Of a stretch of 51,414 bases of DNA, positions 1 to 47,097 are shown piece after piece. The stretch is from Candidatus Micrarchaeota archaeon. GTDB taxonomy: Archaea; Micrarchaeota; Micrarchaeia; Anstonellales; Bilamarchaeaceae. Under the pieces are notes generated by a model. The model was given only the letters and a program-made list of their open reading frames with translations, was not told the DNA's origin and ran no database searches. The translations under genes were made by a program, and so were the position numbers. The first letter of the stretch is position 1; every line of letters begins with the position of its first letter. The stretch spans positions 1 through 51,414 of the forward strand of contig JAKQHW010000011.1 in assembly GCA_029557835.1 (NCBI GenBank). The letters are read 5' to 3'.

Positions 1-468
1 ACCATAAGGTCCGCGGTTCCGCTGCGCAGGTTTTGTAGCCGCCTCGGGGAGTATGCGGGGCAGAGGATTGCGCTGGTGTTCGGGAGGGAAGGGATAGGGC
101 TGAATGAGAAGGAGATAGGGGTGTGCGACATCCTGGTGCACGCGGAAGCGGACCGGAGGTATCCCATCCTCAACATAAGCCATGCGATGGCGGTGGTGCT
201 CTATTCGGTGAGGGCGGGGGGCGGAAAGTCCGGGAAATGCGCGGAGGAGAGAATCAGGGGGGCGGAAAGGCGGGCGCTCACGCATATGTTTAATAAGATG
301 GCGGGGAGATATAGGGTGCGTAATCCGGGGAGGTGCCGGGCGGCCTTTGCAAGGGTGCTCGGAAGGGCGAACCCGACGATGGCGGAGGGGCAGTGCCTTC
401 TCAACGTCTTCCGGCTTGTGCTAGAAGAGCTGGGTGGTAAGGATGGCAAGGAAAATCACGCTCAATGA
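1..468 (+). CDS. SpoU/TrmH-superfamily RNA 2'-O-methyltransferase, C-terminal part (TrmJ-like); 5' end outside window
   Basis: Frame 1 is open from the window edge. ALVFGREGIGLNEKEI...YPILNISHAMAVVLY matches SpoU motifs 2-3. The helical C-terminal extension resembles the TrmJ tail. Confidence 0.6.
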   Translation, partial: TIRSAVPLRRFCSRLGEYAGQRIALVFGREGIGLNEKEIGVCDILVHAEADRRYPILNISHAMAVVLYSVRAGGGKSGKCAEERIRGAERRALTHMFNKMAGRYRVRNPGRCRAAFARVLGRANPTMAEGQCLLNVFRLVLEELGGKDGKENHAQ

Positions 469-1651
469 AATGATATCCCTCACTTTCGACGCGAATCCGC
501 AGATAAGGAAGCAGGCCGCGGCAGAGCTGGCGAGGTACGACGACCCGGCGGCGAATTTCGCGCTCCTGGAGCTCACATACGACAAGGATTCCAGCGTGAG
601 CTCGCTTGCGAGGAAGCTTCTGGACGACAGGAAGGCGTCCCAGCCCGAGCTGATGTCCTTCGCCGAGGTCTTCAGGAACGGGGCGGAGGAAAAAGAGGAG
701 GGGAAGAAGAGCGTGGAGGAGGAGCGCAAGGCGGAGACCGCAAGGGAGAAGATGCTGAGGCCGATCCAGCAGCTCATGGAGAGGAAGCTGGGGAAGGAGA
801 AGGCCAACGCGATGAGAAGCAGGATGATGCCCACGATAGAGAAGATATATATGAAAACCATGGGCAAGAACGGCCAGGTGAACGAGCAGAAGGGGAAGGC
901 CGTGCAGGAGATGCTTACCGATTACCTGGACGTGATCTCAGGGGCGGAGACGCATGTGATAACGGATGAGGGGGAGGGGAAGGCTCCCAGCCCGGAGATG
1001 CCGGATGGGGGGCCGGAGGAAGCGCCCGGGGAGGAGCTGCAGCCGGAACCGCATGGGGAGCTGGGGCTGCAGAGCGTAGGGACCAAGGAGCTGGACATGG
1101 GCAGGGCGGCGATAGAGCTGGAGGAGATTTCAAGCGAGCCTGAGACCCCGGATGCAATTGAGGCGCAGGAGGTGAGGGAAAGCAGGGAAGAGAGGGGGAG
1201 CGTTTTCCGGCTTGCGTACGAAACGATGATGGCGTCCGAAGGCGACGAGGACGTAATGAAGAGGGCGATGCAAAACATGCTCAGGAGCGCGGAGGAGGAG
1301 ATAAAGCTCGCGTTCAGGGTGGCCAAGGAAAGGCACAAGCAGATGAACATCACCCACCTCACGGAGCTGAAAAGCGGCATGAGGAACATAACCACCGTGC
1401 CCCTCGCCGTGAAGGCGGTGGAGCAGAGGGAGTACCAGAAGAGCAAGAAGGTGAAGGACAACTTCACGAGGCTGGTTGTGGCGGACGATGAGGGGAGCGA
1501 AGGGGTAATCTACTTATTCGACAACAGGGGCGCCCTGGTGAGGGAGGGGATGCGCATAAAGATAGAGAAGGGGTACGCGAAGACCTTCGGGTTCTCGGGC
1601 GAGACGGCGCTTTCCATAACGAAGAAGGGGAGCGCTCATATAATCCTTTGA
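443..1651 (+). CDS. hypothetical protein: N-terminal HEAT-like repeat, acidic low-complexity centre, C-terminal OB-fold-like domain
   Basis: The ORF spans 434..1651 and the first ATG is at 443. NPQIRKQAAAELARYDDPAA..LLELTYDKDSSV is HEAT-like. The C-terminus TRLVVADDEGSEGVIYLFDNRGALVREGMRIKIEKGY looks like an RPA-type OB fold. I recognise no family. Confidence 0.5.
   Translation: MARKITLNEMISLTFDANPQIRKQAAAELARYDDPAANFALLELTYDKDSSVSSLARKLLDDRKASQPELMSFAEVFRNGAEEKEEGKKSVEEERKAETAREKMLRPIQQLMERKLGKEKANAMRSRMMPTIEKIYMKTMGKNGQVNEQKGKAVQEMLTDYLDVISGAETHVITDEGEGKAPSPEMPDGGPEEAPGEELQPEPHGELGLQSVGTKELDMGRAAIELEEISSEPETPDAIEAQEVRESREERGSVFRLAYETMMASEGDEDVMKRAMQNMLRSAEEEIKLAFRVAKERHKQMNITHLTELKSGMRNITTVPLAVKAVEQREYQKSKKVKDNFTRLVVADDEGSEGVIYLFDNRGALVREGMRIKIEKGYAKTFGFSGETALSITKKGSAHIIL
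1627..1651 (+). repeat. direct repeat copy 1 (25 nt, GGGGAGCGCTCATATAATCCTTTGA)
   Basis: It matches 1814-1838 at 23 of 25 positions. It covers the last codons and stop of the 443..1651 gene. Confidence 0.85.
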
Positions 1652-1660
1652 TGGTTCAAA

Positions 1661-1813
1661 GGAATGTGCTAAGTGCGCGCAAAGGGCTACAAAGCGAAGT
1701 GGAGGGGGGTCAGAATGACCGGTAAAAATGGGGGGGTTCGGTCGACGCCCCGTTGCAGGGAATTGCAGCGAAGAGGGGTGGAGAGCGAATTAGCTTCCCC
1801 CGCGTTTTCTCGA
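1661..1813 (+). other. tRNA-less copy (X) of the tRNA-proximal noncoding module family
   Basis: AGTGCGCGCAAAGGGCTACAAAGCGAAGTGGA matches 35863-35894 at 25 of 32 positions. It is followed by a G-run, the mini-hairpin GGTCA-GAA-TGACC (1708-1720), TAAAAAT, a G7 run (1730-1736), a ~60-nt insert and a C5 run (1797-1801). No credible ORF is present. Confidence 0.45.
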
Positions 1814-1838
1814 GGGGAGCGCTCACATAATCCTCTGA
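1814..1838 (+). repeat. direct repeat copy 2 (GGGGAGCGCTCACATAATCCTCTGA)
   Basis: It pairs with 1627-1651. On the minus strand it encodes the last codons and stop (..SAQRIM*) of the 1823..2422 gene. Confidence 0.85.
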
Positions 1839-2422
1839 GCGCTTATGCAGTAGAGGATTTCGAAAAAGAACGGCCTCTGCTCAAGGATTGATGCCGAGAA
1901 GCCCTGCGATTGGAGGGAGGAAAGCGTTTTTTCGGGCGAGTTGAGCGAGCTCTGGATGAGGATTAGCGTGCCGCGGGGCGCAAGGTGGGCCTGGAATTCG
2001 TTTAGGAAACGGCCCAGGGTTTCCCTTCCGTCCTCCCCGCCGTCGAATGCGCGGTTGAGGGGGCCGCTTATGCGCTCCTCGGCGGAGGTCGGGAGATAGG
2101 GCGGGTTGAACAGGATTGCGTCGAATTTCCCCCTTATGTTGGAGAAAAGGTCAGATTGGACGAACAGGATGTTCCGGGCGCCGTTGGATTCCGCGTTCTT
2201 CCTGGCGCACTCGAGGGCCGTGGGGCTTGTGTCCGTTGCGAAGACCGGGTTTGAAGGGTTGGTTTTTGCATTGAGGATTGCGGCGAGGCCCGAGCCGGTG
2301 CCGATTTCGAGTATTTTGCCCTTTAAATTGCGGGAGTGGAAGGCCAGCAGCTCGGAATCCTCCGCAGGCTCGTATACATCGGAAGTGACGGATACGGAAA
2401 CACCCAGGAACTCATGGCTCAT
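1823..2422 (-). CDS. HemK/Mtq2-family N5-glutamine (release factor) methyltransferase
   Basis: It has the SAM motif ILEIGTGSGL and the NPPY motif (ILFNPPYLP). The ~200 aa size is typical of archaeal HemK-related methylases. Its start overlaps the stop of the upstream gene (TAATG). Confidence 0.75.
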   Translation of the reverse strand: MSHEFLGVSVSVTSDVYEPAEDSELLAFHSRNLKGKILEIGTGSGLAAILNAKTNPSNPVFATDTSPTALECARKNAESNGARNILFVQSDLFSNIRGKFDAILFNPPYLPTSAEERISGPLNRAFDGGEDGRETLGRFLNEFQAHLAPRGTLILIQSSLNSPEKTLSSLQSQGFSASILEQRPFFFEILYCISAQRIM

Positions 2423-3870
2423 TATCCTGTTTCACCGTTGCCTGCGCAGGGCCTTGGCCTGGCCATAAAATCTTGCCTGAACTGCTCCAGCCTGGACATG
2501 AAATCCTCGCACTGCCCTTGAAGGTGTGAGCATAGCGCCTTCAGCTGGGGGTCGTCGAAATGGATGCTCCCTATGGAGGCGAGGTCAATGCTGAGGATGG
2601 GCCTATCGTCCCTTATGAGGTGGACGCGGCGGTTCCCCTGGTCGAAGGACGTCCTGTAGGGGCTGAACTGGTCGTCGCGCCTGCACCCCACCACGCGGAA
2701 CACCTTCTCGCTCGCGGCAAGGCCGGGAGGGAGGTAACTTTCCATAGGCAGTATGGTGTATTCCCGGAAAATCGAGCGGAGATGGCCGAGGTAGTCTTTT
2801 CCGTCGTCGGGGAGGCCTATCTCGAGCCAGCCGAGCATGAGGAGATGTTTCGGGTCGGCGCCATAGACGTTTATCTGGCCGAAGCGCGGGGCGTGCACCC
2901 CCTCCAGCCCCTGCCTCACCAGCACCTCCCGCGGAGGGCACCTGGAGACCCAGCTGTCCGGGGCGCTGGCGATCGCGTCGCGGGGCACCTCGAAGCCCAG
3001 CTCGTTCTCTATGTAGCCGACGAGCCAGTCAATGTCCTCGCTTGCGAGCATGCGAGAGAGCACGGCCATTGTGTTGTTCACTATGAGGCGGGCGTTCCTC
3101 TGCCGCTTCTCCGGCCGGACGTTCTTGAGGGTGTGCAGGTTGTCGAGGTTGTCCGCAGACTTTATCACCCAGGCGCTCGTGTTCCCTGATACGTAATAGA
3201 GGCGGCGGTAGTAGCTGTATCCCCTCCTGTCGTACATGGAACGCTCGTAGCTGTCCTGCGTTGGGTAATAGGATTCTGAATCCGGGTATATCCATTCCTT
3301 TCCGTCCCATTTGGGCTTGGTGAGCCACAATACCATATCTGAGACGGGCGCCCCGAAATTCTCCCGTATCTCCTCAAGGCGTACCCCGAAATCCTCGATG
3401 GAGTCGTGGAGCATCGCCGCGGTGACCTGCTGCTGGTCCTCCTGCCTGCCCCTGCCAACCACCGCAATGCGGTATGCGACGCGCATGGCGTGCTGCATGT
3501 AGGCGGAGCCGTCGTCCCTCACAAATATGGAACCGGTTCTTGGGTTTGGGCGGGTGCGATGGAGAAGGGACAGGAATTCGTGGGCGGCTTCCAGCCGCTT
3601 TATCTGGCCCATGCCGAGGCTGCCATGCCTGGCGAATTCCCGCACAATCTGTTCCATGGAAACGTCATCAGGAGGGTGGAAAAAGCTGGTTGGCACGCGC
3701 TTGGCCGTGCATATCCCCTCAAAAAGGAGGGGTGCGCGGGACAGCCCGGAGGCCCCATCGGAAACTGTGGTGCCCAGCTGGCGCAAGCCGCGGGCTGGGG
3801 TGTCCCTTTCGCACAAGAGGTCGAGCTGCGTGCCCCTCATCGGGGGCGTCGGTTTCCTGTCTGGAGGCAT
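2422..3870 (-). CDS. HD-domain protein, RelA/SpoT (Mesh1)-type hydrolase domain plus unknown ~190-aa C-terminal domain
   Basis: QHAMRVAY..., AAMLHDSIEDFG and VIKSADNLDNLHTL match the H / HD / D motifs of SpoT-type (p)ppGpp hydrolase domains. A Tyr/Arg-rich insertion is present, and I do not recognise the C-terminal half. Confidence 0.65.
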   Translation of the reverse strand: MPPDRKPTPPMRGTQLDLLCERDTPARGLRQLGTTVSDGASGLSRAPLLFEGICTAKRVPTSFFHPPDDVSMEQIVREFARHGSLGMGQIKRLEAAHEFLSLLHRTRPNPRTGSIFVRDDGSAYMQHAMRVAYRIAVVGRGRQEDQQQVTAAMLHDSIEDFGVRLEEIRENFGAPVSDMVLWLTKPKWDGKEWIYPDSESYYPTQDSYERSMYDRRGYSYYRRLYYVSGNTSAWVIKSADNLDNLHTLKNVRPEKRQRNARLIVNNTMAVLSRMLASEDIDWLVGYIENELGFEVPRDAIASAPDSWVSRCPPREVLVRQGLEGVHAPRFGQINVYGADPKHLLMLGWLEIGLPDDGKDYLGHLRSIFREYTILPMESYLPPGLAASEKVFRVVGCRRDDQFSPYRTSFDQGNRRVHLIRDDRPILSIDLASIGSIHFDDPQLKALCSHLQGQCEDFMSRLEQFRQDFMARPRPCAGNGETG

Positions 3871-3966
3871 AATAATGGTAAATAGGCGCAGAAAAAGTAT
3901 TTAAACGTTGGGTTTTGTGGGAAAGTGAATGTTTGGGAATACATAAATGAAGGTTTTTTGCACTTG

Positions 3967-4401
3967 CTAGCGGATGACCAGCTGCTTCCCCTTCTTTTTC
4001 TGCCCTGATTTTATCCTCATGCGTATCTCAAGGACGCCGTTCTCGTATTTCGCCCTGGCGGAAGAGGGGTCCACCTCCTCGGGGAGGGCAAGCTCGCGGG
4101 AAAATGCGGAGAGGAGGCGCTCCTTCCTGTAGAAGCCCTTCCCCTTCTCCCCCTTCTCTTCCTTCCTCCCGCCCGAGATGCGCACGCGGTTGTCGTGCAG
4201 GTCCACCCGGATGTCCTCCTTGCTGAGGCCGGGCATCTCCACCGAGAGGACCAGCTCGTTCCTCTCCTTCCTGAGGTCGGCGGGCGGGGTGCGTGCCCCG
4301 GCGGTGAAGAAATCGAACTCTTTTCCGAAAAGGTCAGGGAACTCCCAGTAAAGCCGCTTCCGCATCCTCTTCAGCTTCTCGTATGGGTCCGGGACGAACA
4401 T
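3967..4401 (-). CDS. small heat shock protein, Hsp20/alpha-crystallin family
   Basis: The alpha-crystallin core is LVLSVEMPGLSKEDIRVDLHDNRVRISG...AKYENGVLEIRM. Confidence 0.85.
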   Translation of the reverse strand: MFVPDPYEKLKRMRKRLYWEFPDLFGKEFDFFTAGARTPPADLRKERNELVLSVEMPGLSKEDIRVDLHDNRVRISGGRKEEKGEKGKGFYRKERLLSAFSRELALPEEVDPSSARAKYENGVLEIRMRIKSGQKKKGKQLVIR

Positions 4402-7164: not shown

Positions 7165-7716
7165 ATGGAAGATTATGCATGGGTTGTGGAATACCTCCCA
7201 AGGGGGAGGGCGGTTGGCTCGCGGCAGGAGCCGATTGTCCAGCTTGTGGGGGACCAGTTCTTCACCCTTCTCGAGGCGACGGTAAAGCCGGACGCGAACA
7301 TAACCGTGGGCAGCAGGATATTTGTGGGCAAGGGGGACCGGGCGGAAGTGGACAGGATAAAGGGCAGGATAGAGTATTCCGAGCTCACCACCGGGGCGAA
7401 GGACATCGTCCCCATAGTGGTGAGGAAAATAATAGAGGGCAGGGAGGAAATCTTCATAAAGTTCATCAACAAGGCGGGGCCCATATCCATGAGGGTGCAC
7501 CAGCTGGACCTTATCCCGGGGATAGGGAAGAAGAACATGGAGCTGATACTGAAAGAAAGGGAGAAGAAGCCATTTGAGAATTTCGCGGACCTGAAGGCGA
7601 GGGCCCCCACGGTGGGGGACCCTGCCGCGGTGTTCGTGCACAGGATAGTTTCCGAGATGGAGGGGAAGGAGAGGTACTACATCTTCGTGAAGCCTCCGCA
7701 GCGGGCGCAGTACTAG
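7165..7716 (+). CDS. DUF655-family protein (OB fold + helix-hairpin-helix, putative RNA/nucleotide binding)
   Basis: The N-terminus YAWVVEYLPRGR and LIPGIGKKNMELILKER (HhH) match DUF655. It has conserved synteny downstream of rpoF. Confidence 0.75.
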   Translation: MEDYAWVVEYLPRGRAVGSRQEPIVQLVGDQFFTLLEATVKPDANITVGSRIFVGKGDRAEVDRIKGRIEYSELTTGAKDIVPIVVRKIIEGREEIFIKFINKAGPISMRVHQLDLIPGIGKKNMELILKEREKKPFENFADLKARAPTVGDPAAVFVHRIVSEMEGKERYYIFVKPPQRAQY

Positions 7717-7757
7717 CCCTTGTTTTTAATTCTTCAGTAATTTATTATCTATAGCCG

Positions 7758-7853
7758 AGGGGTTATGGTTACCCTAAAAGGGAAGGGGGCGATGAGGTCC
7801 CGGTGGACTTCTTCGGACATCGCAGCAGCGATGCGGAGGTCCCCCTTCCTCCT
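7758..7853 (+). other. tRNA-proximal noncoding module, copy A (closing helix 7781-7789/7841-7849 with two internal hairpins)
   Basis: The sequence runs GGGGTTATGGTTACCCTAAAAG, then GGAAGGGGG...CCCCCTTCC. Internal hairpins are GAGGTCC-CGGT-GGACTTC (7794-7811) and CATCGC-AGCA-GCGATG (7818-7833). It ends 4 nt before tRNA-Val. Confidence 0.5.
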
Positions 7854-13339: not shown

Positions 13340-14365
13340 TCAACCCTTGTCCAGCATCGGCCCGAAGTTCTTTGGCTTCCTTTTCTTCCAATTGCCTTTG
13401 TGGTAGGCGTAGCCGACCACCAGGGGCATCGCAATCGTCGCCTCGGCGAAAACCATCTGCTCGTTTCCCTCGTCCACCTTGCCCCAGGAATGCGCCTCCT
13501 TCAGGGTGGAGCCGGAGAGCGCACCGTCCCTCTCGTCCGCTACGGTGATTTGCACCGCGTACTTGTGCATGGAGACGTCCTTCCCGAGAACCTCCGCCGC
13601 GACCACAATGTCCTGCGTGAAGTTCTTCGGGACTCCGCCCCCTATCATGAGGATTCCGGTCTCCCCGGCCGCCAATTTGATTTTCGTAATCTCAAGGAAG
13701 TCCTTCGCCGAGTCTATGGACGCGTGCTGCTTTGGATTGTGCCACTGATGGTGCACGAAGCCGAAGCCGGCGCTGCAGTCGGAAAATGCAGGCACAAAAA
13801 TAGGCACGCCCATCTCGTAGGACGCGAGCACCACGGACTGCCTGTTCTTCCCGTGCTCCTGCAGGTATTTGCCCATCTCCCGGATAATTTCCCTTGAGGA
13901 ATGGGGCTTCGGAGGAAGGGAATCCGCTATTTTCGCAACGGTCATGTCGCACTCGCGCAGCTCGTCCTCGTCTATATATGTATCATATATGCGGTCTATG
14001 CGCTTCTGCCTCAAATCCTCGTCGTCCGCCATGGGGTTGCCCATGTAGTGCCTGAAGCCCAGCCCCTCGAAGAAGTCCTGGTCCACCATTATCGCGCCCG
14101 TGGAGACAATCGCGTCCACCATGTTGTTGCGCACCATGTCCACGACCACATCTTTCAACCCCGCGCTGAAGAGGGAGCCGGCCAGGCAGAGTATCACGGA
14201 GCAATTCTCGTCCGCCAGCATCTTGTCGTAGATATGGGAAGCACGGGCGAGGTTCCTCGCCTGGAACGCCATGTGAGAATAGTCTTCTATTAGCTGCACC
14301 GGGTTGTGCTTCTTGATGTCTATGTGCTTTATCTCCTTTCCAAGGTATTCCTCTCTGGTAGGCAT
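13340..14365 (-). CDS. dys: deoxyhypusine synthase
   Basis: The whole sequence looks like DHS (STGAIMVDQDF, IGGGVPKNF, SWGK). GTATAAAAAAC lies ~25-30 nt upstream of the ATG. Confidence 0.9.
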   Translation of the reverse strand: MPTREEYLGKEIKHIDIKKHNPVQLIEDYSHMAFQARNLARASHIYDKMLADENCSVILCLAGSLFSAGLKDVVVDMVRNNMVDAIVSTGAIMVDQDFFEGLGFRHYMGNPMADDEDLRQKRIDRIYDTYIDEDELRECDMTVAKIADSLPPKPHSSREIIREMGKYLQEHGKNRQSVVLASYEMGVPIFVPAFSDCSAGFGFVHHQWHNPKQHASIDSAKDFLEITKIKLAAGETGILMIGGGVPKNFTQDIVVAAEVLGKDVSMHKYAVQITVADERDGALSGSTLKEAHSWGKVDEGNEQMVFAEATIAMPLVVGYAYHKGNWKKRKPKNFGPMLDKG

Positions 14366-14394: not shown

Positions 14395-14497
14395 ATACTA
14401 TCGTGAGAGAAATATAATACGCACTTGGGACTATGCGCCCATGTTTGCGAACCGTCCGCTTTATGTCGGATAAAAACGGGACTAAAAAAGCGGTCGA

Positions 14498-19562: not shown

Positions 19563-20086
19563 CCCCTCGCCTCGAAAAGCCATTTGAACGAGTCCCTCTT
19601 CAGGGCTTCCTTCGCCATCTTCTTCGCGGAAGCGGTCTTCAGGAGCGCTGATGCGCGCTCAATCCACTGCTCCACGTATTTGTTACCAAGGTCCCTGTAT
19701 TCCTTCGCCTGGAAGATGAGCTCGAGCCGGTCCGCGTCCTTCGCGACCTCCATCACGCGGGCGTCCCTGAAAAGTTCCGGTATCTCTGGAAGCGGCGCGA
19801 ACGTGTCCGCCTGCGCCCTGCCCTCGTCTATCTCCATGTATCTCTTCCCAACGATGTGCACGTCGTTTATCCGGACCTCGTGCAAATCGTGGAACAGGGC
19901 CGCAAGCGCCGCCTTCTCCGGGTCCACGCCCTCCTTTTTCGCTAGGATGTATGCGATGACCGCAGAACGGTAGGAATGCTCGGATACGCTCTCCGGCTTT
20001 ATCCCTATGGTCTTCCAGCCCGAGCGCTCCACTCTGCGCAGCGCGCCTGCCTGGTATATGAAGTCTATCTCGTCCAGATTACTCAC
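19559..20086 (-). CDS. HD-domain phosphohydrolase, YfbR-like 5'-deoxynucleotidase family
   Basis: RSGWK...ESVSEHSYRSAVIAY and ALFHDLHEVRINDV are HD-domain signatures. Confidence 0.75.
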   Translation of the reverse strand: MSNLDEIDFIYQAGALRRVERSGWKTIGIKPESVSEHSYRSAVIAYILAKKEGVDPEKAALAALFHDLHEVRINDVHIVGKRYMEIDEGRAQADTFAPLPEIPELFRDARVMEVAKDADRLELIFQAKEYRDLGNKYVEQWIERASALLKTASAKKMAKEALKRDSFKWLFEARG

Positions 20087-21278
20087 CGAACTTATGCCTC
20101 ATCATGGAGATGGTCTCCTGGGGCGTGTGGCCCAGCTTTATGAGCTTTGTGTGCCCCCTTATCCCCTTCCCGCTCTCGACGGTCGTCACCAGCCCGAGCA
20201 TCTCCAGGTCAGTGAGGTAGCTCCTGTAAGAGCGCGCGGTCTTGGCGGATTTCCTGAGCTTGGAGCAGAGCTCGGAATAGTCCTCGTAAACCTCCCCGGA
20301 GAAGAGGTATCCGTCCTTCCCCTCCTCGAACCTCGCGTATTTGCTCCCCGAAAGGGTGAGGCGCGCGACCGCGTAGAGCACGAGCTGGTGGTGCTCCGGC
20401 AGCTTGTCGACCGCCTCCTTCACAAGGTCGGTCTCCACTATTTCCCTCGCCCCCTTCACCTCGGCGTCGGTTATCCTCCCGAGGCCCTTTTCCTCGGCGT
20501 ATTCGGCCGCGCGCGCGATCAGCTTTAGCGCGTAGCGCGCGTCCCCGGACTCCTGCGCGGTGTACGCGCTGGCGAGGTTTATCGCGCCCGGGGTTATCGC
20601 GTCCTTGTTGAATGCGAGCTCCACCCTCTGCTGCAGGATTTTCTGCAGCTGGGGCGCGGTGTATGGGGGGAACACCATCTCCCTCTCGTAGAGGCTGCTC
20701 TTGCTGCGCGGGTCGAGCCCCTCCTTGAACGTGAGGCGGTTGGATATGCCCACCAGGGAGACGCCGCCGCGCTCCAGCTCGTCGTTCGCCCTTGTGAGCG
20801 TGTATATCAGCTCGTCTATGTTCTTAGCCATGTCTATCTCGTCCAGCACGAGTATCAGCTGCCTCCCCTCCCCGCACCACTCGAGCATCTTCTCGTAATA
20901 AAAAGGCAGCCCGTACCCCTGCTTGTCAAGGCCGTTGGTGAGCGCCTTTATCGCCTTGGACAGGATGCGGTAGGGCTTGTTGTACATCCTGCAGTTTATG
21001 TATGTGATGCGGGCGTTTTGGCGCTCCTCCTCGAATTTCCTGGCCACGTGCTTGACCGAGCAGGTCTTGCCGGTGCCGGTCTTCCCGTATATCATGAGGT
21101 TGCGCGCCTTCCTGCCCTGGAGGGCGGGGGCGAGTATGGACATCAGCTCCCTTATCTGGTGCTCCCTGAAATGGAGGGTGTCGGGTATGAAATGGGGTGA
21201 GAGCACGTCCCTGTCGCGGTATATGCGCGAGGGGCCAGTGAAGTCTCCAAAAGAAGGCATCTCAGCACCGGAAAGCAT
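20079..21278 (-). CDS. cdc6: Orc1/Cdc6 replication initiator
   Basis: It has an AAA+ Walker A (YGKTGTGKT), Walker B (LVLDEID) and a C-terminal winged helix. An alternative ATG is at 21260. Confidence 0.92.
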   Translation of the reverse strand: MLSGAEMPSFGDFTGPSRIYRDRDVLSPHFIPDTLHFREHQIRELMSILAPALQGRKARNLMIYGKTGTGKTCSVKHVARKFEEERQNARITYINCRMYNKPYRILSKAIKALTNGLDKQGYGLPFYYEKMLEWCGEGRQLILVLDEIDMAKNIDELIYTLTRANDELERGGVSLVGISNRLTFKEGLDPRSKSSLYEREMVFPPYTAPQLQKILQQRVELAFNKDAITPGAINLASAYTAQESGDARYALKLIARAAEYAEEKGLGRITDAEVKGAREIVETDLVKEAVDKLPEHHQLVLYAVARLTLSGSKYARFEEGKDGYLFSGEVYEDYSELCSKLRKSAKTARSYRSYLTDLEMLGLVTTVESGKGIRGHTKLIKLGHTPQETISMMRHKFGE

Positions 21279-21840: not shown

Positions 21841-22752
21841 ATGCTCAAGGTGGATTTCCTGGGGACCGGAGGCGCGGTCCCTTCCATAAAGAGGGCCATG
21901 CCGGCCATTGCCCTCCACTGGGACAAGCTGTTCCTGTGGGACTGCGGGGAGGGCACGCAGAGGGAGATGATGAGGCGCGGCGTCGGGTACGGGGGCGTGG
22001 AGGCGATATTCATAACCCACATGCACCTGGACCACTTCATGGGCGTGTTCGGGCTGATAGAGACCATAAGGATGAACACGCAGAGGGAGCACCTGCGCAT
22101 CTTCGCGCCAAGGGGGCTGGCGCGCATAATCGAGGCGATGAGCCCGTCCTTCGCACGCAGGCCGGACTTCATACAGTTCGGCGAGATGCACGAGGGCGAG
22201 CTCTACCGCGGCAAGGACTATTCCATATCCGCGTTCAGGGTGGAGCACGGTAGGGAGGCGTACGGGCTCGTTTTCCACGAGGACGACAAGGTGAAGTTCA
22301 ACGAGAAGGAGGCGAAGGGGCGCGGTCTGCGGGGAAAGATGTTCCGCGAGATACAGGAGAGGGGGGAAGTGGAGGTTGCGGGGAAGAGGGTAAAGCTTGA
22401 GGAGGTGAGCTGGGTGAGGAAGGGTATCAAGGCGGTTTATTCCGGGGACACGATGCCGTCGGAGAGGGTCGCGCTCGCGGCAAGGGGCGCGGACCTGCTC
22501 ATACACGACGCCACCTTCGGGGAGGGGATGGGCGACGAGGCCGAGGGGAGGATGCACACCACCGCGGCAGGGGCCGCGAGGATTGCGAAGGCGGCTGGAG
22601 TGAAAAGGCTGGTTTTGACGCACATAAGCTGCAGGTACGCTGGCGCGGAGAAGGAACTGCTCTCTGAAGCGCGGGCGATATTCAGGAACTCTGAGTTGGC
22701 CAAGGATGGGATGTCGCTGGAAGTGAAGCCGGAGAAGGAAGAGCCGGAATAG
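21841..22752 (+). CDS. rnz: ribonuclease Z (tRNA 3' endonuclease)
   Basis: LGTGGAVP, the HxHxDH motif (ITHMHLDH) and THIS are present. The ~300 aa size fits short-form RNase Z. Confidence 0.9.
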   Translation: MLKVDFLGTGGAVPSIKRAMPAIALHWDKLFLWDCGEGTQREMMRRGVGYGGVEAIFITHMHLDHFMGVFGLIETIRMNTQREHLRIFAPRGLARIIEAMSPSFARRPDFIQFGEMHEGELYRGKDYSISAFRVEHGREAYGLVFHEDDKVKFNEKEAKGRGLRGKMFREIQERGEVEVAGKRVKLEEVSWVRKGIKAVYSGDTMPSERVALAARGADLLIHDATFGEGMGDEAEGRMHTTAAGAARIAKAAGVKRLVLTHISCRYAGAEKELLSEARAIFRNSELAKDGMSLEVKPEKEEPE

Positions 22753-27290: not shown

Positions 27291-27351
27291 GTTTTTATTC
27301 TTCTTTTGTTGCTAATATGGATGCCGGAGACTGGAAACAGGAAACGGTCTT

Positions 27352-27450
27352 GGGTCCGTAAGGTAACCTGGATAGCCTACAAGGCTTCGAATGCCTTCTC
27401 CTGAATGCAGGAGCAACCTTGCAGTGTGGGTTCAAATCCCGCCGGGCCCG
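27352..27450 (+). tRNA. tRNA-Arg (anticodon UCG) with ~25-nt intron at the canonical 37/38 position
   Basis: The acceptor is GGGTCCG/CGGGCCC. The anticodon arm is CAAGG-CTTCGA[intron ATGCCTTCTCCTGAATGCAGGAGCA]A-CCTTG. The T arm is GTGGG-TTCAAAT-CCCGC. The intron carries the hairpin CTCCTG-AATG-CAGGAG. Confidence 0.85.
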
Positions 27451-27464
27451 ATTGGAGAAAACGC

Positions 27465-27480
27465 GGGGGAGGCGTCCCCC
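27465..27480 (+). terminator. G5/C5 hairpin plus TCATTTTC tail downstream of tRNA-Arg
   Basis: GGGGGA-GGCG-TCCCCC is followed by TCATTTTCTTCC. The same CCCCCTC..TCATTTTC tail follows tRNA-Lys. Confidence 0.4.
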
Positions 27481-27574
27481 TCATTTTCTTCCATCTCTCT
27501 GATCCCCCTCCACTTCGCTTGGAGCCGCTTGGCGCGCACTCCTTACGCAATTGGATGGATTAAGGTGATTATGC

Positions 27575-28709: not shown

Positions 28710-30605
28710 TTGCAACAGAAAGAAATAGAGAAGACCGTATCTGAGATAATGCCCGCGGAGTGCGGGATTGCCAAGGTGGAGGCCGAAGGCCTGAATATAG
28801 TAATATATGTGAGGAACATCGAGGCGTTCTACCGCAACGACCAGCTCATCAAGCAGCTTGCCGGAGCGGTCAGGAAGAAAGTCAGTGTAAGGGTGGACCA
28901 GTCCCGGCTCATGGACATGGAGAGGGCAAGGAAAGAGATTGAGTCCCTCGTGCCAAAGGAGGCGGTGATAAGCTCCATCACGTTCGCATCAACCTTCTCC
29001 GAGGTGTTCATAGAGGCGCTCAAGCCCGGGCTCGTGATAGGCAAAGGGGGCGTGGTGCTCAAGGAGATAATAACAAGGACGGGCTGGTCGCCCGTGGTCC
29101 TGAGGAGCCCGACCATACCCTCCTCGACCATACGGGGGATAAGGAAGGGATACATGGCCGAGGCGGAGGACAGGAAGAAGTTCCTGCTCTCGCTCGGGAA
29201 GAAGATATGCCAGCCCTCGCCCTCGAGCGAATGGGTGCGGGTGTCCATGCTCGGCGCGTTCAGGGAGGTGGGCCGGAGCTGCATGCTGGTGCAGACCCCC
29301 CACAGCAGGTTGCTCATTGACGTGGGGATAAACCCGGTGATAGGGGAGGCCACCAAGGCCTACCCATACCTCAACTTCATGGGGTTCCCGCTGGAAGAGC
29401 TGGACGCCGTGATAATCAGCCACGGCCACATAGACCACATGGGCTTCCTGCCCTATCTGTACGCTTATGGATACGACGGCCCGGTGTACTGCACCCCCCC
29501 GACCAGGGAGCTGATGGCGCTGCTGCAGACCGATTCCGTGGACCTCATGAAGAAATCCCTCGGGGTGGACCCGCCATACGGGAAGAAGGACATCCAGAAG
29601 GAGCTCAGGCGGGTGGTCCCGGTGGAGTACGGGGAAGTGGTGGACATAACCCCGGAGATAAAGATGACGCTCTACAACGCCGGGCACATAATCGGGAGCG
29701 CGATGGTCCACCTCCACATAGGGGAGGGGCTCCACAACCTTGTGTACAGCGGGGACATGAAATTCGGGTACACCCGGCTCTTCGAGCCGGCCAACACCCG
29801 CTTCCCGCGCATAGAGACGCTCTTCCTGGAAAGCACATACGGGGCCAAGAACGACATCACCTCGAACCGGAGGGACATGGAAGACAGGCTCGTGAACATA
29901 ATCAAGGAGACCGCGGCGAAGGGGGGAAAGGTGCTCATACCGGTGTTCGCGGTTGGGAGGAGCCAGGAGATAATGCTCGTGCTGGAGGACTATGTGAGGC
30001 GGGACCCGAACTTCAACGTCCCGGTCTACATAGACGGCATGGTGATGGAGACCTCGGCCATCCACACCGCGTATCCGGAATACCTGCGCGAGAGCATAGA
30101 GAGGAGGATACTCTCCAACAACAGCCCGTTTGAGTCCCCGATGCTCAAGGTGGCCAAGGGGACGGACAAGGAGAGCATAGTGAACGGCGAGCCGGCGGTC
30201 ATACTTGCGCCGTCAGGAATGCTAAACGGCGGGCCTTCTGTGGAATACCTCAGGCTCATGGCCGAGGACGAGAGGAACACGCTCGTTTTCGTGGGCTACC
30301 AGAGCCCGCTTTCCCTAGGGCACAAGATACAGAGGGGCATGAAGGAGATACCGGTCACCGGAGACGACGGAAGGGCAAAGATAATGAACATAAGGATGCG
30401 CATCGAGACCGTGGAGGGCTTCTCCGGCCACAGCGACAGGCACCAGCTCATGGCATTCCTCAGCAACCTAAAGCCGGTTCCGGAGCGCGTCTTCACGATG
30501 CACGGGGACTGGAACAAGGCGGACGACCTCGCGAGGGGGGCAGCTTCCCTGCTCAGGAGGGAGGCGAGGGCGCCCCTGAACCTAGAGGCGATTAGGCTCA
30601 AATGA
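28710..30605 (+). CDS. aCPSF1/FttA: KH-KH + metallo-beta-lactamase + beta-CASP ribonuclease (transcription termination factor)
   Basis: The 631-aa protein has N-terminal KH domains (GLVIGKGGVVLKEI), an HxHxDH motif (SHGHIDHMG) and beta-CASP motifs. It lies next to psmB, as in many archaea. Confidence 0.9.
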   Translation: MQQKEIEKTVSEIMPAECGIAKVEAEGLNIVIYVRNIEAFYRNDQLIKQLAGAVRKKVSVRVDQSRLMDMERARKEIESLVPKEAVISSITFASTFSEVFIEALKPGLVIGKGGVVLKEIITRTGWSPVVLRSPTIPSSTIRGIRKGYMAEAEDRKKFLLSLGKKICQPSPSSEWVRVSMLGAFREVGRSCMLVQTPHSRLLIDVGINPVIGEATKAYPYLNFMGFPLEELDAVIISHGHIDHMGFLPYLYAYGYDGPVYCTPPTRELMALLQTDSVDLMKKSLGVDPPYGKKDIQKELRRVVPVEYGEVVDITPEIKMTLYNAGHIIGSAMVHLHIGEGLHNLVYSGDMKFGYTRLFEPANTRFPRIETLFLESTYGAKNDITSNRRDMEDRLVNIIKETAAKGGKVLIPVFAVGRSQEIMLVLEDYVRRDPNFNVPVYIDGMVMETSAIHTAYPEYLRESIERRILSNNSPFESPMLKVAKGTDKESIVNGEPAVILAPSGMLNGGPSVEYLRLMAEDERNTLVFVGYQSPLSLGHKIQRGMKEIPVTGDDGRAKIMNIRMRIETVEGFSGHSDRHQLMAFLSNLKPVPERVFTMHGDWNKADDLARGAASLLRREARAPLNLEAIRLK

Positions 30606-31724: not shown

Positions 31725-32111
31725 ATGGGCATATTGAAATCAATAAAGGAATTCTTCTTGGGGAAGGACGAGAAGAAGGCCGTTCCACAAGCAAAGCCGG
31801 CGGCCGCAGCGCCGCCTGCCGCGAGGCCGCTGCCTCCGCCAAGGCCGGTTGCGAGGCCGCTGCCTCCTCCACAGAGGCCGGCGGGTGCGATGCCCCCGAG
31901 GCCGATAGCGCCTATTTACCGGCCGCTTCCGCCTCCGGCGCGCCCGGTTGCGAGGCCGCTGCCTCCGCCAAGGCCTGCTGCCAGGCCCGCAGTCTTTGCG
32001 CCGCCCTATTCCGCCATGAAGGCGGCCCAGAAGCCCGCCGCCAAGAAGCCGGCGAAAAAGGCGGCTAAGAAGGCGCCTGCGAAAAAAGGGAAGGCGAAAA
32101 GGAAAAAGTGA
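31725..32111 (+). CDS. Pro-rich repeat protein with N-terminal amphipathic helix and Lys/Ala-rich basic tail
   Basis: It starts MGILKSIKEFFLGK, carries 4x (A)RPLPPP(R)P units and ends AAKKPAKKAAKKAPAKKGKAKRKK. Confidence 0.5.
   Translation: MGILKSIKEFFLGKDEKKAVPQAKPAAAAPPAARPLPPPRPVARPLPPPQRPAGAMPPRPIAPIYRPLPPPARPVARPLPPPRPAARPAVFAPPYSAMKAAQKPAAKKPAKKAAKKAPAKKGKAKRKK
31821..31975 (+). repeat. intragenic DNA repeats encoding ARPLPPPRP units
   Basis: GCGAGGCCGCTGCCTCCGCCAAGGCC is identical at 31821-31846 and 31950-31975. A 17-nt partial copy is at 31851-31867. Confidence 0.85.
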
Positions 32112-32162
32112 ATTAAAGACGGGGGCGAGAGCCCCCTTCCTGTTTTTCCATAACCAGGGCGG

Positions 32163-32771: not shown

Positions 32772-33896
32772 ATGGGAGTGACACCGTGGGAAGTATCCGG
32801 CAACATAGATTATGAGAAGCTCATAAAGGAGTTCGGGACCAGCGGCATAACCCCTGCCCTGCGGGCGAGGGTTGAGAGGAACGCCGGGGAAAGCAACGTG
32901 ATGCTCAGGAGGGGGTATTTCTTCTCCCACAGGGACCTGGACCTCGTGATGGACGATTACGAGAAAGGAAGGGGGTTCTACCTTTATACCGGCAGGGGGC
33001 CGAGCGGCCCGATGCACATCGGCCACCTGATACCCCTCGTTTTCACCAGATGGCTGCAGGAGAGGTTCAAGGTGAACCTTTACATAGAGATAACCGACGA
33101 CGAGAAGTTCCTGTGCAGGCGGGAGGAGGGATGGGAAGATATCGGGAAACACGCGGAGCAGAACATCCGGGACATCGCGGCGGTCGGGTTCGACCCTGAC
33201 CGGACGTTCATATTCAGGGACAGCGAGTACATAGGCAACGTATACCCGATGCTGCTCAAGATAGCCAAGAAGGTGAATTTCTCGACCGTGAAGGCGGTAT
33301 TCGGCTTCACGAATGAGACCAACATAGGGTTCATCTTCTACCCGGCATACCAGATAATGCCCACCCTGTTCGAGAAGAAGAGGTGCCTCATCCCCGCGGC
33401 GATAGACCAGGACCCGTACTGGAGGGTGCAGAGGGACATCGCCGAATCGCTCGGGCACCAGAAGACGGCGGCAATACATTCAAAGTTCCTCTCGCCCCTG
33501 CAGGGGGCGGAGGGGAAGATGAGCTCCAGCGTAAGGGAGAGCGCCATCTGGCTGGATGACGACGAGAAAACGGTGCGGAAAAAGATAATGAAGTACGCGT
33601 TCTCGGGAGGGCGCTCCACCCTGGAGGAGCACAGGAGGCTGGGGGCGGACCTGTCCGTGGACGTGCCGTTCCAGTGGCTGAGCGTGCTGTTCGAGCCGGA
33701 TGATGTGGAGTTAAAAAGAATCGCCGGGGAATATGGAAGCGGCAGGATGCTCACCGGGGAGGTGAAGGAAATCCTTGCGGGGAAGGTGAATGAATTCCTC
33801 GAGGGGCACCGGGCAAGGCGGGAGAAGGCGGACGTAAAGAAATACATGCGCACCGGAAAGCTGGCAAAAGAGATGTGGAACAAACGGTTTGAGTGA
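32772..33896 (+). CDS. trpS: tryptophan--tRNA ligase (archaeal/eukaryotic type)
   Basis: VTPWEVSG..DYEKLIKEFG, the HIGH-like motif TGRGPSGPMHIGH and the KMSKS-like motif KMSSS are present. An alternative ATG is at 32757. Confidence 0.9.
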   Translation: MGVTPWEVSGNIDYEKLIKEFGTSGITPALRARVERNAGESNVMLRRGYFFSHRDLDLVMDDYEKGRGFYLYTGRGPSGPMHIGHLIPLVFTRWLQERFKVNLYIEITDDEKFLCRREEGWEDIGKHAEQNIRDIAAVGFDPDRTFIFRDSEYIGNVYPMLLKIAKKVNFSTVKAVFGFTNETNIGFIFYPAYQIMPTLFEKKRCLIPAAIDQDPYWRVQRDIAESLGHQKTAAIHSKFLSPLQGAEGKMSSSVRESAIWLDDDEKTVRKKIMKYAFSGGRSTLEEHRRLGADLSVDVPFQWLSVLFEPDDVELKRIAGEYGSGRMLTGEVKEILAGKVNEFLEGHRARREKADVKKYMRTGKLAKEMWNKRFE

Positions 33897-33900
33897 TATT

Positions 33901-34803
33901 ATGGAACGCAAAGGATTCGGGGGGGGAAGGCCGGGTGGATTCAGGGGGAGGCCCAGTGGAGGCTTCGGCGGGAGGCCGAGGGGCGGCGGACCTGACCTGG
34001 ATATGGAAAGGCGGCTCAGGTTCCTTAAGAAGGCGAGGGAGAGGACCGCGCAGGCCCTGCGCAGCAGGGACGTCATGCTTGCCCAGATATCACGCTCCAT
34101 AGAGCAGCTGGAGGAGGTGTCCAACCTCCTCGGGGAAAAGCTTGAGGAGATGTATTCGTTGCAGTTCCCGGAGCTAAAGACGAGCGACCGGAGGAGCTAT
34201 GTGGGGGTGGTCCTGAACATGGAGAGGGAAAACCCGGACCCTGCCTCGATATCGAGATTCGTGGGGCAGGGGAGGGCCGAGGCCATCTGCCAGAAGGCAA
34301 GGGAGAGCACCGGCGGCCAGCTGGAGGCAAAGGACATAGAGAAGATAAGGGAGCTTGCGAGGGAAATCGAGAACGTTTACGGGCTGATGGACTCGTACGA
34401 GGCATACCTGGAGGAGATGGCGAAGGAGGTTTGCCCGAACATAGAGCACCTGGTCGGAGGCAAGCTGGCCGGGAAGCTGGTCTCGCTCGCAGGGAGCCTG
34501 AGGAAGCTCTCGCTGATGCCCGCGAGCACCATACAGGTCCTCGGTGCGGAGAAGGCGCTCTTCAAGCACCTCAAGAACAAGAAGGGTGTGGCCCCTCCTA
34601 AGCACGGGGTGCTTTTCCAGTATCCGGCTATTTCGCAGTCAAACAAGAAGGCGAGGGGCAAGATAGCGCGTGCGCTGGCCGCGAAGCTTGCGATTGCGGC
34701 GAAGGCGGATGCGCAGACGAAAAGGTTCATAGCGCCGATGCTGAAGGAGAACCTTGAAGCCCGGATAAGGGAGGTCCTCTCCGAGAAAAGGGCGAGGGCT
34801 TGA
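33901..34803 (+). CDS. nop5: Nop56/58 (Nop5) C/D-box RNP protein lacking the N-terminal domain, with N-terminal RGG/GAR tract
   Basis: The Nop domain is GKLVSLAGSLRKLSLMPASTIQVLGAEKALFKHL..PKHGVLFQYP and the coiled-coil region is LEEMYSLQFPEL. The N-terminus is GFGGGRPGGFRGRPSGGFGGRPRGGG. Confidence 0.85.
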   Translation: MERKGFGGGRPGGFRGRPSGGFGGRPRGGGPDLDMERRLRFLKKARERTAQALRSRDVMLAQISRSIEQLEEVSNLLGEKLEEMYSLQFPELKTSDRRSYVGVVLNMERENPDPASISRFVGQGRAEAICQKARESTGGQLEAKDIEKIRELAREIENVYGLMDSYEAYLEEMAKEVCPNIEHLVGGKLAGKLVSLAGSLRKLSLMPASTIQVLGAEKALFKHLKNKKGVAPPKHGVLFQYPAISQSNKKARGKIARALAAKLAIAAKADAQTKRFIAPMLKENLEARIREVLSEKRARA

Positions 34804-35808: not shown

Positions 35809-35855
35809 ACCAGCTCCCATTTTAATAAGATGGTGGGGGCAAATAATAAACACGC

Positions 35856-35997
35856 GAAATGAGTGCGTGCAAAGAGTTGCACGGTGAAGTGGAAAGGGGG
35901 TATGATTACCCTAAAGAGAGGGGGGATGGTGGAGTTCCGCAGAACTTCGCCAGACATCGCCGCAGCGATGCTGAAGGCGTTCCCCCTTCTTCTTGGA
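35856..35997 (+). other. tRNA-proximal noncoding module, copy B
   Basis: AGTGCGTGCAAAG..GAAGTGGA is shared with copy X. It continues GGGGGTATGATTACCCTAAAGAGA, a G6 run, hairpins GGAGTTC-CGCA-GAACTTC (35931-35948) and CATCGC-CGCA-GCGATG (35955-35970), then CCCCCTTCTTCT. It ends ~4 nt before tRNA-Pro. Confidence 0.5.
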
Positions 35998-36278: not shown

Positions 36279-36325
36279 GGGGGGTTATGAGTACGCTAGA
36301 GAGAAGGGGGTGCTCCCCCTTCCTC
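36279..36325 (+). other. tRNA-proximal noncoding module, minimal copy C (tetraloop hairpin)
   Basis: GGGGGGTTATGAGTACGCTAGAGAG is followed by AAGGGGG-TGCT-CCCCCTT. It ends 6-8 nt before tRNA-Met/Ile2. Confidence 0.4.
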
Positions 36326-36330
36326 TTGCA

Positions 36331-36471
36331 GCCGAGGTAGCTCAGCCTGGCTGGAGCGCCAGACTCATAAGGCGCGGTTCTTATGAGTACTGAGGCGGAC
36401 TTTCCGCCTATGACATACAAAGGCGTATCTGGGAGATCTGGAGGCCGGGGGTTCAAATCCCCCCCTCGGCA
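36331..36471 (+). tRNA. tRNA with anticodon CAU (elongator Met or Ile2) containing a ~66-nt intron (36370-36435)
   Basis: The acceptor is GCCGAGG/CCTCGGC. The anticodon arm is CCAGA-CTCATA[intron]A-TCTGG. The T arm is GGGGG-TTCAAAT-CCCCC. The intron contains CTTATGAG, complementary to the anticodon loop, which is expected for BHB formation. It is not initiator-like (G1, no GGG/CCC anticodon stem). Confidence 0.85.
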
Positions 36472-46601: not shown

Positions 46602-47097
46602 GTTCTCACCAGAGTTATCCTGTTGCTGGATAATCCTATGGCAGGATAACTTATTAAATATACCGGCTTAACAATAACTTAACATAACTCACGTCGGTGA
46701 GTGGATTATTGTTAAGTATTGTTAAATTAATGATGGTCGCCTATTTTATGCATCTAACTGAACAAAAATCCCAATTTCTTTCATTATACTGAAGGCTTTA
46801 GGATACGCGGGCGCTTCGGCCTTCTGTGAATCGTTAAATCTCATTACGTAAAGTTTAAGCTGGATTTATTTGACGAAAACGCCAGGAATGCAATTCTTCC
46901 GTCTTAAAATATTAAGCGGTTTATGATTTAATGCAATTTAATGTAAATGTCGAACCGTCATTAGTAAGTCGCTCCGTTTTAATCATTTACCCTTCGCTCA
47001 GGCGGAAAAGGAGAGAGAATGGAAGCTGTAAAACCTGATTTTGCAGACGTAGTGGCTGGAAACCCGAAACTGGAAACTGGAAACAAAATCAATGATT
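46602..47097. other. ~500-bp AT-rich gene-free region with palindromes and CTGGAAAC repeats
   Basis: GC is visibly far below the flanks (e.g. 21 of 60 in 46681-46740). No ORF of 60 aa or more lies within 46602-46978. Inverted repeats are 46614-22/46642-50 and 46667-77/46706-16, with an inner hairpin at 46687-46702. CTGGAAAC occurs at 47056-63, 47070-77 and 47077-84. Confidence 0.6.

Follow-up and report, generated by a model that had tools for sequence, protein, structure and literature searches.

Short (50-150 nt), non-coding, multi-copy repeats that form hairpins are familiar as miniature inverted-repeat transposable elements (MITEs) and as repetitive extragenic palindromic (REP) sequences, with Correia elements, RUP and REPINs as examples. 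Such repeats lie at gene boundaries and in the gaps between convergent genes, are present or absent at orthologous sites, and may carry promoter- or terminator-like signals. Here we analyze element X, which lies between the convergent genes of a HEAT-repeat protein and a HemK/PrmC-like methyltransferase in a Candidatus Micrarchaeota archaeon (contig JAKQHW010000011.1 of assembly GCA_029557835.1, positions 1 to 51,414; the whole stretch is referred to as the window), together with the repeat family to which X belongs. The family shares the above traits and works like a MITE or REP-type repeat. It differs by the lack of terminal inverted repeats, by target duplications of 12 to ~100 nt instead of fixed ones of 2-10 nt or none, and by conserved copies that are fused to tRNA 5' ends at a distance of 2-3 nt, in DPANN archaea. 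In a direct comparison, the 5' end (GCGTAAGGAG.. or a G-run) did not match the reverse-complemented 3' end (GGAGAAAACGC or CCAAGAGGAAGG). Because it has neither inverted ends nor a fixed short duplication, the family falls outside the classical MITEs.

Other described systems share single traits with the family. Rickettsia palindromic elements (RPE), which are bacterial, are found in frame inside protein genes as well as in non-coding regions. Likewise, a core element of the X family is read in frame in the SpoU gene of the related loci L003, L109 and L120; neither long target duplications nor a tRNA 5' association is known for RPE. Insertion of short interspersed elements (SINEs) and processed pseudogenes by target-primed reverse transcription leaves a fixed 3' end at the right repeat, target duplications of variable length, filler between the left repeat and the 5' end, and shortened copies reduced to the 3' half, and all of these traits are also seen in the X family. 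In contrast to SINE-type insertions, however, these 3'-half copies share one start instead of random ones, no reverse transcriptase was seen in the scanned open reading frames (ORFs) of the window, and several copies have upstream AT-rich boxes that an RNA copy should lack. The only documented parallel that we found for the long variable duplications is IS1634/IS1549, whose insertions show direct repeats of 8-514 bp with no accepted mechanism; the IS1634 family is reported to occur preferentially in Euryarchaeota (PMC2266710). Yet these are elements of 1.5-2 kb with a DDE transposase and inverted ends, neither of which is seen for the X family, and mobilisation of the family in trans by an IS1634-like enzyme is pure conjecture.

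Near-identical upstream regions before unrelated genes have been described as putative mobile promoters (PMC3575422). Short copies of the X family resemble them in that a TA(A/G)AGAGA box lies ~34-27 nt before tRNA +1, or 23-27 nt before a ..TTGG end that is itself 2-3 nt from tRNA +1, and in that ..CTCTTGGAGG.. occurs before an ATG. However, the box pairs and co-varies with the 3' arm, the 50-60-nt loop inserts of X and of copies A and B in the window break the promoter geometry, and X faces the 3' end of a gene; its AT-rich box is ~85 nt from the element end, with no gene after it. An archaeal TATA box is expected about 27 nt before the start site, and a pure promoter reading has some appeal in the case of the short copies, but this covariation and these inserts speak against it. 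The family also differs from the attachment (att) repeats of integrases, since its flanking repeat varies with the local target and the unit of ~160 nt contains no gene. Hairpin elements derived from IS200/IS605 or of the REP/RAYT type have subterminal hairpins and insert with no target duplication; in the X family, hairpins near both ends are conserved and co-vary, many copies have flanking duplications, the relative L119 has a TnpB gene, and no Y1 transposase was seen. In the literature on Micrarchaeota repeats or mobile elements we found no description of such elements.

We consider it probable that X came by a one-step insertion with a 26-nt target duplication, after the split from the nearest sampled relatives. 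In the ancestors, the HEAT-repeat gene and the convergent HemK-like gene overlapped by their last 16 nt. In the lineage of the window, two copies of a 26-nt segment holding this overlap are now separated by a 147-nt family copy and 14 nt of filler, so that both genes have complete 3' ends. In such compact genomes only insertions whose duplication spans the overlap would be expected to survive, which may be the reason why the flanking repeats coincide with the gene ends.

The initial annotation had noticed two 25-mers at the ends of the two genes; their coordinates were exact, and the gene ends and stops agree with the ORF list. One base further to the left belongs to the repeat, which thus measures 26 nt with 24/26 identical positions (Table 1). 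It scores 20 in an ungapped flank-versus-flank comparison, while shuffled flanks reach at most 11. A degenerate form of the 25-mer with up to three mismatches occurs at only two sites in 51,414 nt and in none of 100 shuffles. Among 127 fetched loci (designated by L numbers), the 25-mer recurs solely at orthologous HEAT-gene ends, which argues against a motif common to the ends of convergent genes. The first 10 nt of the right copy are now non-coding and still identical to the left copy. Two independent assemblies (one JGI and one ENA contig) contain the same filled junction with a single SNP, so the filled state is genomic and no assembly artefact. No empty allele and no closer relative were found: both of these assemblies carry X, and the HEAT protein of the next genome is 80% identical.

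The two genes are syntenic in all close relatives. The HEAT-repeat protein has 234 homologues, many of them with Pfam HEAT_2, and the closest are 80, 79, 79 and 73% identical; for the HemK-like gene, 228 relatives were found in genomes, and its orthologues match Pfam MTS/PrmA. The relatives of the HemK-like protein assign the window to Micrarchaeota, a DPANN lineage. We read the state of the junction in 14 related loci from Micrarchaeota relatives. A single copy of the segment with overlapping stops is present in L001 (CTACATAATCCTCTGA), L004 and L005, where the overlap of 16 nt lies wholly inside the 25-mer, and in L083 and L123, where it amounts to 11 nt. The segment is duplicated in tandem in L081, L003 and L002, with spacers of 1, 2 and 26 nt, respectively. 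In L119, L120 and L109 the stops abut at 0 nt after an exact duplication of the overlap, and in L082 an insert of ~79 nt separates GCTCTAA from GCTCTGA. A neighbour-joining tree of the HEAT protein shows the groups ((window,(L081,(L002,L003))),L001) and (L082,(L083,L123)), and a third group that includes L004, L005, L119 and L120. Overlapping stops occur in all three groups; the overlap is therefore the ancestral state of the junction, and it has been resolved independently at least four times.

These relatives bear out the proposal that the genes once overlapped tail to tail within the 25-mer, and they provide the predicted empty sites with one copy and overlapping stops; the 187-bp spacing of the window recurs in no relative. 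A one-step insertion is favoured by the exact empty site in relatives and by the repeats of 24 and 32 nt at other copies of the subtype. Both target copies in the window also share a lineage-specific His codon (CAT/CAC), for which all 21 other homologues compared have Tyr. Together with the 10 identical non-coding bases, this codon points to an event later than the divergence of the sister clade (L081, L003, L002), and the insertion looks recent. The locus offers a natural pair of empty and filled states in which overlapping genes of a ~1-Mb DPANN genome were separated with neither damaged.

X is a true member of the family, as the earlier reading of a tRNA-less module copy implied: every part listed there is present, and neither ARAGORN nor Rfam (RF00005) finds a tRNA at 1500-2000. 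A covariance model, R1, was built from the copies X2 (window), L096, L086 and L091 with X left out, and it recovers X over model positions 1-97 with 61.3 bits (E = 6e-14). X is closer to the full-length subtype of X2, L086 and L096 than to A, B and C, the copies linked to tRNAs, whose core motif GGGKTATGNNTACSCTARARRGRRRGGGG has no match in X within three mismatches. X falls into a sister subtype with GGTCAGAATGA.. and ..GCGTTTTCTC, and R1 links both subtypes. The 44 nt to the left of X match nothing outside the three assemblies of the locus. A perfect 8-bp hairpin lies directly before X, made up of the last bases of the left repeat and of the filler (14 nt, 1652-1665). Other identities of X were considered and rejected. 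C and D boxes are found on neither strand, which excludes a C/D-box small RNA; the 72-aa ORF at 1673-1891 has no usable start codon and is interrupted by stops in L096, and the same holds for the short frame ..EVEGDxxDGRK of some copies. On 1500-2000, the best Rfam match is sR43, which scores 19 bits (threshold 45) and falls within the coding sequence of HemK.

The family exists in two forms. The core form of ~47 nt, GGGGGTTATGA(G/T)TACCC TA(G/A)AGAGA AGGGGG-loop-CCCCC TTCCTCTT GG, is that of A, B and C in the window and of copies in L003 and L005, and a scan of metagenome contigs added 40 core copies on 35 contigs. The full-length form of ~95 nt, represented by X2, L096, L086 and L091, has in addition a 5' domain GCGTAAGGAGTACG .. 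CAAAGAGTTGCAAA GTGAAGTGG, and in one subtype its end reads ..GAAGAAAATGAGGGGG-loop-CCCCCGCGTTTTCTCC. Because R1 also recovers copies of the B type and core copies, both forms constitute one superfamily. The first of the two conserved helices is a short 5' hairpin with a Shine-Dalgarno-like loop (consensus GCGTAAGGAGTACG); the second is a long 3' hairpin built on a G5-7/C5-7 core, with a purine/A-rich arm paired to a pyrimidine/T-rich one. The copies A, B, L005 and L116 possess a different insert of ~50 nt at the same loop site that holds the 60 nt of X. In a 19-copy alignment fitted to the model, the pairing of the two helices reaches 89.5%, compared with 53-66% when the partners are slid by one to three columns, and 20 of the 21 pairs show compensatory changes. 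The TATA-like purine-rich box thus pairs and co-varies with the 3' pyrimidine tract; hence, selection maintains the hairpin, either in RNA or in single-stranded DNA.

No Rfam family matches these repeats; permissive scans of X and copy B yield chance-level matches alone, and at gathering thresholds the whole window contains just seven tRNAs, two of them with introns. A hammerhead-like three-way junction in copies A and B was rejected, because the core motifs are not conserved between the copies. That many tRNA genes of Micrarchaeota are preceded at 2-3 nt by a selected 16-bp hairpin bears on transcription start sites, on insulation from genes upstream and on 5'-end maturation, and the 29-nt core motif provides a simple lineage tag for metagenomes. 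For X itself, the terminal hairpin (-43 kcal/mol, z = -3.8) is bordered by T-runs on both strands: TTTT follows it on the plus strand (within GCGTTTTCT) and TTTTT on the minus strand (ATTTTTA). Judged from these features, X is probably a two-way transcription stop between the HEAT and HemK-like genes; in place, it would un-overlap the genes by separating their two 3' ends.

The left and right flanks of every family copy were compared, with shuffled flanks as a control. A duplicated target borders at least about 12 further copies; it measures 12 to ~100 nt and usually corresponds to a gene end or tRNA end (Table 1), so the direct repeats that the initial annotation proposed to look for around further copies do exist. 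The measured duplications are 12, 14, 24, 26, 26, 28, 32, 32, 35, 41, 44, 57 and at least 67 nt long; each insertion has a different repeat, derived from its local target. With the exception of L084 (9 nt), the right target copy always starts no more than ~4 nt from the constant 3' end of the element, whereas 0-27 nt of filler lie between the left target copy and the 5' end. At the L086 site, the element interrupts an ancestral stop/start overlap, ATGTTTGA. The window contains the empty orthologue of this site; the two genomes are therefore reciprocally filled and empty. In L096 (plus strand), tRNA-Thr is intact on one side of the element and present as a fragment on the other. The fixed 3' end and the long variable duplications give this conserved, structured repeat family an unusual signature.

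Copies are found in diverse positions. Of the core copies, 36 are non-redundant; 14 of these stop 0-5 nt (in most cases 2-3 nt) ahead of a tRNA gene on the same strand, with seven tRNA identities represented. Others lie 2-17 nt before an ATG, often as ..CTCTTGGAGG.., and eight are situated inside ORFs. Family copies also occur in 5' untranslated regions and at gene junctions. Their presence at orthologous sites varies. Copy A has no orthologous copy in L082, L119 and L120. The in-frame copy of the SpoU methylase gene, read as ..GGYEYPREKGG..PPSSW, is present in L003 (6028-6121, minus strand), L109 (213-304) and L120 (1132-1222) and absent in the window, L002, L081, L004 and L005; it thus shares one position in genomes of two clades and is missing in their closer relatives. 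Furthermore, L005 has a copy between the SpoU and HEAT genes, and L004 has none. By lineage, the family occurs in those of the window, L003, L005 and L120, and no copy is present in 22 kb sampled from the genome of L082 or in 21 kb sampled from L119. These patterns support the earlier suggestion that the module family moves or is copied.

Several observations weigh against a one-step insertion of a mobile element. The 20 window ORFs scanned with Pfam gave housekeeping functions or no match; none of them matched a transposase, reverse transcriptase or integrase, so the search for a mobilising enzyme proposed in the initial annotation came out negative there. No terminal inverted repeats were found in the family, and an ordinary transposase with a fixed stagger is ruled out because the duplications span 7 to ~100 nt. 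The tRNA-linked copies and X2 show no flanking repeat in the flank comparison; they look like old, conserved copies. X is a divergent member, with 61 bits against 105-112 for the closest subtype, and in our data its 60-nt loop insert has neither a match beyond the three assemblies of the locus nor a source copy. A simple terminator scan did not flag X, because its loop exceeds 8 nt. Finally, the genes of L081, L003 and L002 and of L119, L120 and L109 were un-overlapped with little or no insert; the duplication could therefore pre-date X. These tandem duplications could equally be the footprints of elements that were lost later.

A rival reading concerns the order of events at the junction. A tandem duplication by slippage, which the window might share with L081, L003 and L002 by common descent, might have separated the genes before X landed in the resulting neutral gap, with gene conversion or coding constraint accounting for the near-identity of the copies. 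The segment has indeed been duplicated in tandem with spacers of 0-2 nt in at least two clades, a third, degenerate copy in the L002 spacer indicates that it is prone to duplication, the window groups with the duplicated clade in the tree, and the right copies of the window, L081 and L002 have GCGCTCA in common, which supplies the TGA stop of HemK. The left boundaries differ, however (the segment measures 26 nt in the window and ~21 nt in the sister clade), and the right copy agrees with the left one at all 10 unconstrained bases, whereas the two copies of the sister clade match at only about half of the positions. An element that duplicates its target would have left a third repeat in an older tandem duplication; just two target copies flank X, which argues for a single step, and other family members have long flanking repeats of their own. 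We therefore regard a prior duplication as unlikely, although it retains some weight. The earlier proposal that the insertion itself duplicated the target is largely upheld by the empty sites and the repeats elsewhere in the family, and this residual weight attaches to the order of the two events.

It is rather improbable, in our estimation, that no dedicated mobile element was involved and that hairpins of tRNA leaders were occasionally copied into stalled or broken sites by template switching during replication or repair, in a manner like microhomology-mediated break-induced replication (MMBIR). A polymerase that returns upstream of its departure point would generate duplications of arbitrary length, and selection would keep the events that spare genes. 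The extremely variable duplications (7 to ~100 nt), the variable filler of 0-27 nt at the 5' junction, the negative enzyme search of the window ORFs and the state of L082, where an unrelated tRNA-Lys leader was copied into this same junction and has a repeat of 7-8 nt, would fit such a process. Nevertheless, the ends of independent insertions fall within ~2 nt of one position of the element (..CTCTTGG or ..TTTTCTC), most of these insertions share the G-run as their start, consistent microhomology at the junctions is not seen, and copies are near-identical across genomes whose proteins are just 65-80% identical, which argues for a recognised element. Very improbable, finally, is an ancestral X, a small RNA gene or terminator between the genes that was lost in the relatives, with the overlap as a secondary state. 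The conserved helices, the AT-rich box CATATAAT inside the left repeat ~25 nt upstream of the 5' domain, and the T-run at the end of X would suit an independent small-RNA gene. This reading is contradicted by the phylogenetic distribution, as all three clades, outgroups included, show overlapping genes. The 26-nt direct repeat, moreover, cannot come from a deletion, and the empty site seen in relatives is exactly what recombination between the two repeats would restore.

If X arrived by insertion with target duplication, the cut and copying could have been accomplished by an enzyme with wide, variably spaced staggered cuts, as in IS1634/IS1549, by target-primed copying of a leader RNA, or by template switching during replication. 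The constant 3' end of independent insertions favours staggered cuts or target-primed copying over template switching; taken with a 5' start that varies little and with copies that are near-identical in different genomes, it points to a recognised element and not to random switching. The insertion mechanism stands a substantial chance of being new. The junction of L082 suggests an RNA route, since the insert (7234-7312) is a copy without tRNA of a leader module, K, that is unrelated to the X family and lies before tRNA-Lys in the window (Table 1). This insert has a flanking repeat of 7-8 nt, and HemK reads 15 codons into it. It is closer to the tRNA-Lys leader of the window than to that of its own genome, which has an extra insert of 56 nt; the comparison included L126 (reverse complement of 3641-4010) and L127 (1-640), and L127 has a tRNA-Lys without such a leader. 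The L082 copy begins a few nt past the predicted transcription start and stops at tRNA position -2, so it covers the transcribed leader only. Against an RNA route stand the AT-rich boxes upstream of several copies and the lack of a reverse transcriptase among the scanned window ORFs.

As a tentative proposal, which we hold to be possible and still doubtful, the modules may form an undescribed class of archaeal non-autonomous mobile elements: structured cassettes of 50-150 nt that would reside in the 5' leaders of tRNA genes, spread to gene boundaries with target duplications of 7 to ~100 bp, regularly un-overlap genes in ultra-compact DPANN genomes and set up new boundaries of transcription units. 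Candidate mechanisms would be the retro-copying of leader RNAs released by RNase P, or an IS1634-like enzyme acting in trans.

Table 1. Coordinates of the junction, of element X and of further family copies in the window, with target duplications at copies in other loci.
Feature	Position	Strand	Extent or evidence
HEAT-repeat gene	434..1651	+	405 aa, end ..KKGSAHIIL, TGA 1649-1651; ORF list
Left copy of 26-nt target, AGGGGAGCGCTCATATAATCCTTTGA	1626..1651	+	last 8 codons and stop of HEAT gene
Perfect 8-bp hairpin TCCTTTGA-TGGT-TCAAAGGA	1644..1663	+	fold of 1600-1700, z = -3.1, and direct reading
Element X, full-length family member	1666..1812	+	147 nt; covariance model R1, alignment, fold z = -3.8
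X 5' domain	1666-1703	+	includes GAAGTGGA at 1696-1703
X G-run	1704-1709	+	sequence reading
X GGTCA-GAA-TGACC	1708-1720	+	sequence reading
X A-tract TAAAAAT	1723-1729	+	start of long terminal hairpin
X G7	1730-1736	+	terminal hairpin arm
X loop insert	1737-1796	+	60 nt, in loop of terminal hairpin
X C5	1797-1801	+	terminal hairpin arm
X GCGTTTTCT	1802-1810	+	3' arm of terminal hairpin
Right copy of 26-nt target, AGGGGAGCGCTCACATAATCCTCTGA	1813..1838	+	minus strand: last 5 codons and TGA of HemK-like gene
HemK/PrmC-like methyltransferase gene	1823..2422	-	199 aa, end ..AQRIM, TGA 1823-1825; ORF list
Copy A, core element with ~50-nt loop insert	7755..7853	+	between conserved TATA region and tRNA-Val(TAC)
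K leader module, unrelated to X family	14427..14497	+	between TATA box and tRNA-Lys
X2, second full-length copy of X's subtype	27454..27548	-	R1 107.5 bits
Empty orthologue of L086 insertion	33870..33905	+	TrpRS-like/Nop5-like stop/start junction without element
Copy B, full-length element with loop insert	35854..35997	+	ends 3 nt before tRNA-Pro
Copy C, minimal core element	36279..36330	+	ends 3 nt before intron-containing tRNA-Met 36331-36471
Target duplication, L086			24/24 nt; last eight codons of TrpRS-like gene and ATG of next, Nop5-like gene
Target duplication, L096 (+)			31/32 nt; positions -1 to 31 of tRNA-Thr gene
Target duplication, L093			18 nt exact, ~26 nt total; tRNA 3' end and trailer
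Target duplication, L096 (-)			~44 nt, diverged; tRNA 3' end and trailer
Target duplication, L107			57 nt; last 15 codons and stop of PheRS-alpha
Target duplication, L115			at least 67 nt; ribulose-phosphate epimerase (Rpe), its last 20 or more codons, up to transketolase start
Target duplications, L101, L095, L084, L092, L116, L100			32, 41, 35, 28, 12 and 14 nt, respectively

X2 adjoins the 3' end of an intron-containing tRNA gene (27352-27450). This gene and the one at 36331-36471 were found by Rfam and missed by ARAGORN. Short repeats of the type GGAAAC(C/T)GG flank several tRNA genes, both in the window (47058-47097 and ~27326-27351) and in L119 (17520-17545 and 17640-17700), and one is located inside the intron of tRNA-Lys in L126. 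A minimal hairpin, TAAAGACGGGGGCGAGAGCCCCCTTCCTGTT, lies at 32114-32144 directly after the ORF 31725-32111 and is weakly similar to the 3' hairpin of the family (R1 16 bits). Inside or beside an ORF, imperfect GC-rich direct repeats with a spacing of 30 nt (..GGTTGCGAGGCCGCTGCCTCC..; 31809-31987) may encode a repetitive protein segment.

Around the HEAT/HemK junction of other genomes, distant Micrarchaeota (L007, L008, L011 and L012) possess a textbook C/D-box small RNA (ATGATGA..CTGA..ATGATGA..CTGA) just 3' of HemK, where the neighbouring gene differs. The independent contigs L124 and L125 end at the same point by the HEAT gene with a fold-back copy of the preceding 30 nt, which is probably an assembly artefact at a hairpin-prone site. 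L119 encodes a TnpB (OrfB_IS605/Cas12f-like) gene (2097-3215, minus strand) ~7 kb upstream of the junction, and no Y1 transposase is annotated beside it.

Elsewhere in the window, the ORFs 20082-21278 (minus strand), 21841-22749 and 28710-30602 correspond to Orc1/Cdc6, tRNase Z and the termination factor FttA/aCPSF1; because Orc1/Cdc6 is encoded here, a replication origin may be close. The deoxyhypusine-synthase-like gene at 13343-14365 (minus strand) has its closest matches at 92, 88 and 84% identity, followed by some labelled Ignavibacteria at ~75%, which suggests gene transfer or mis-binned records.

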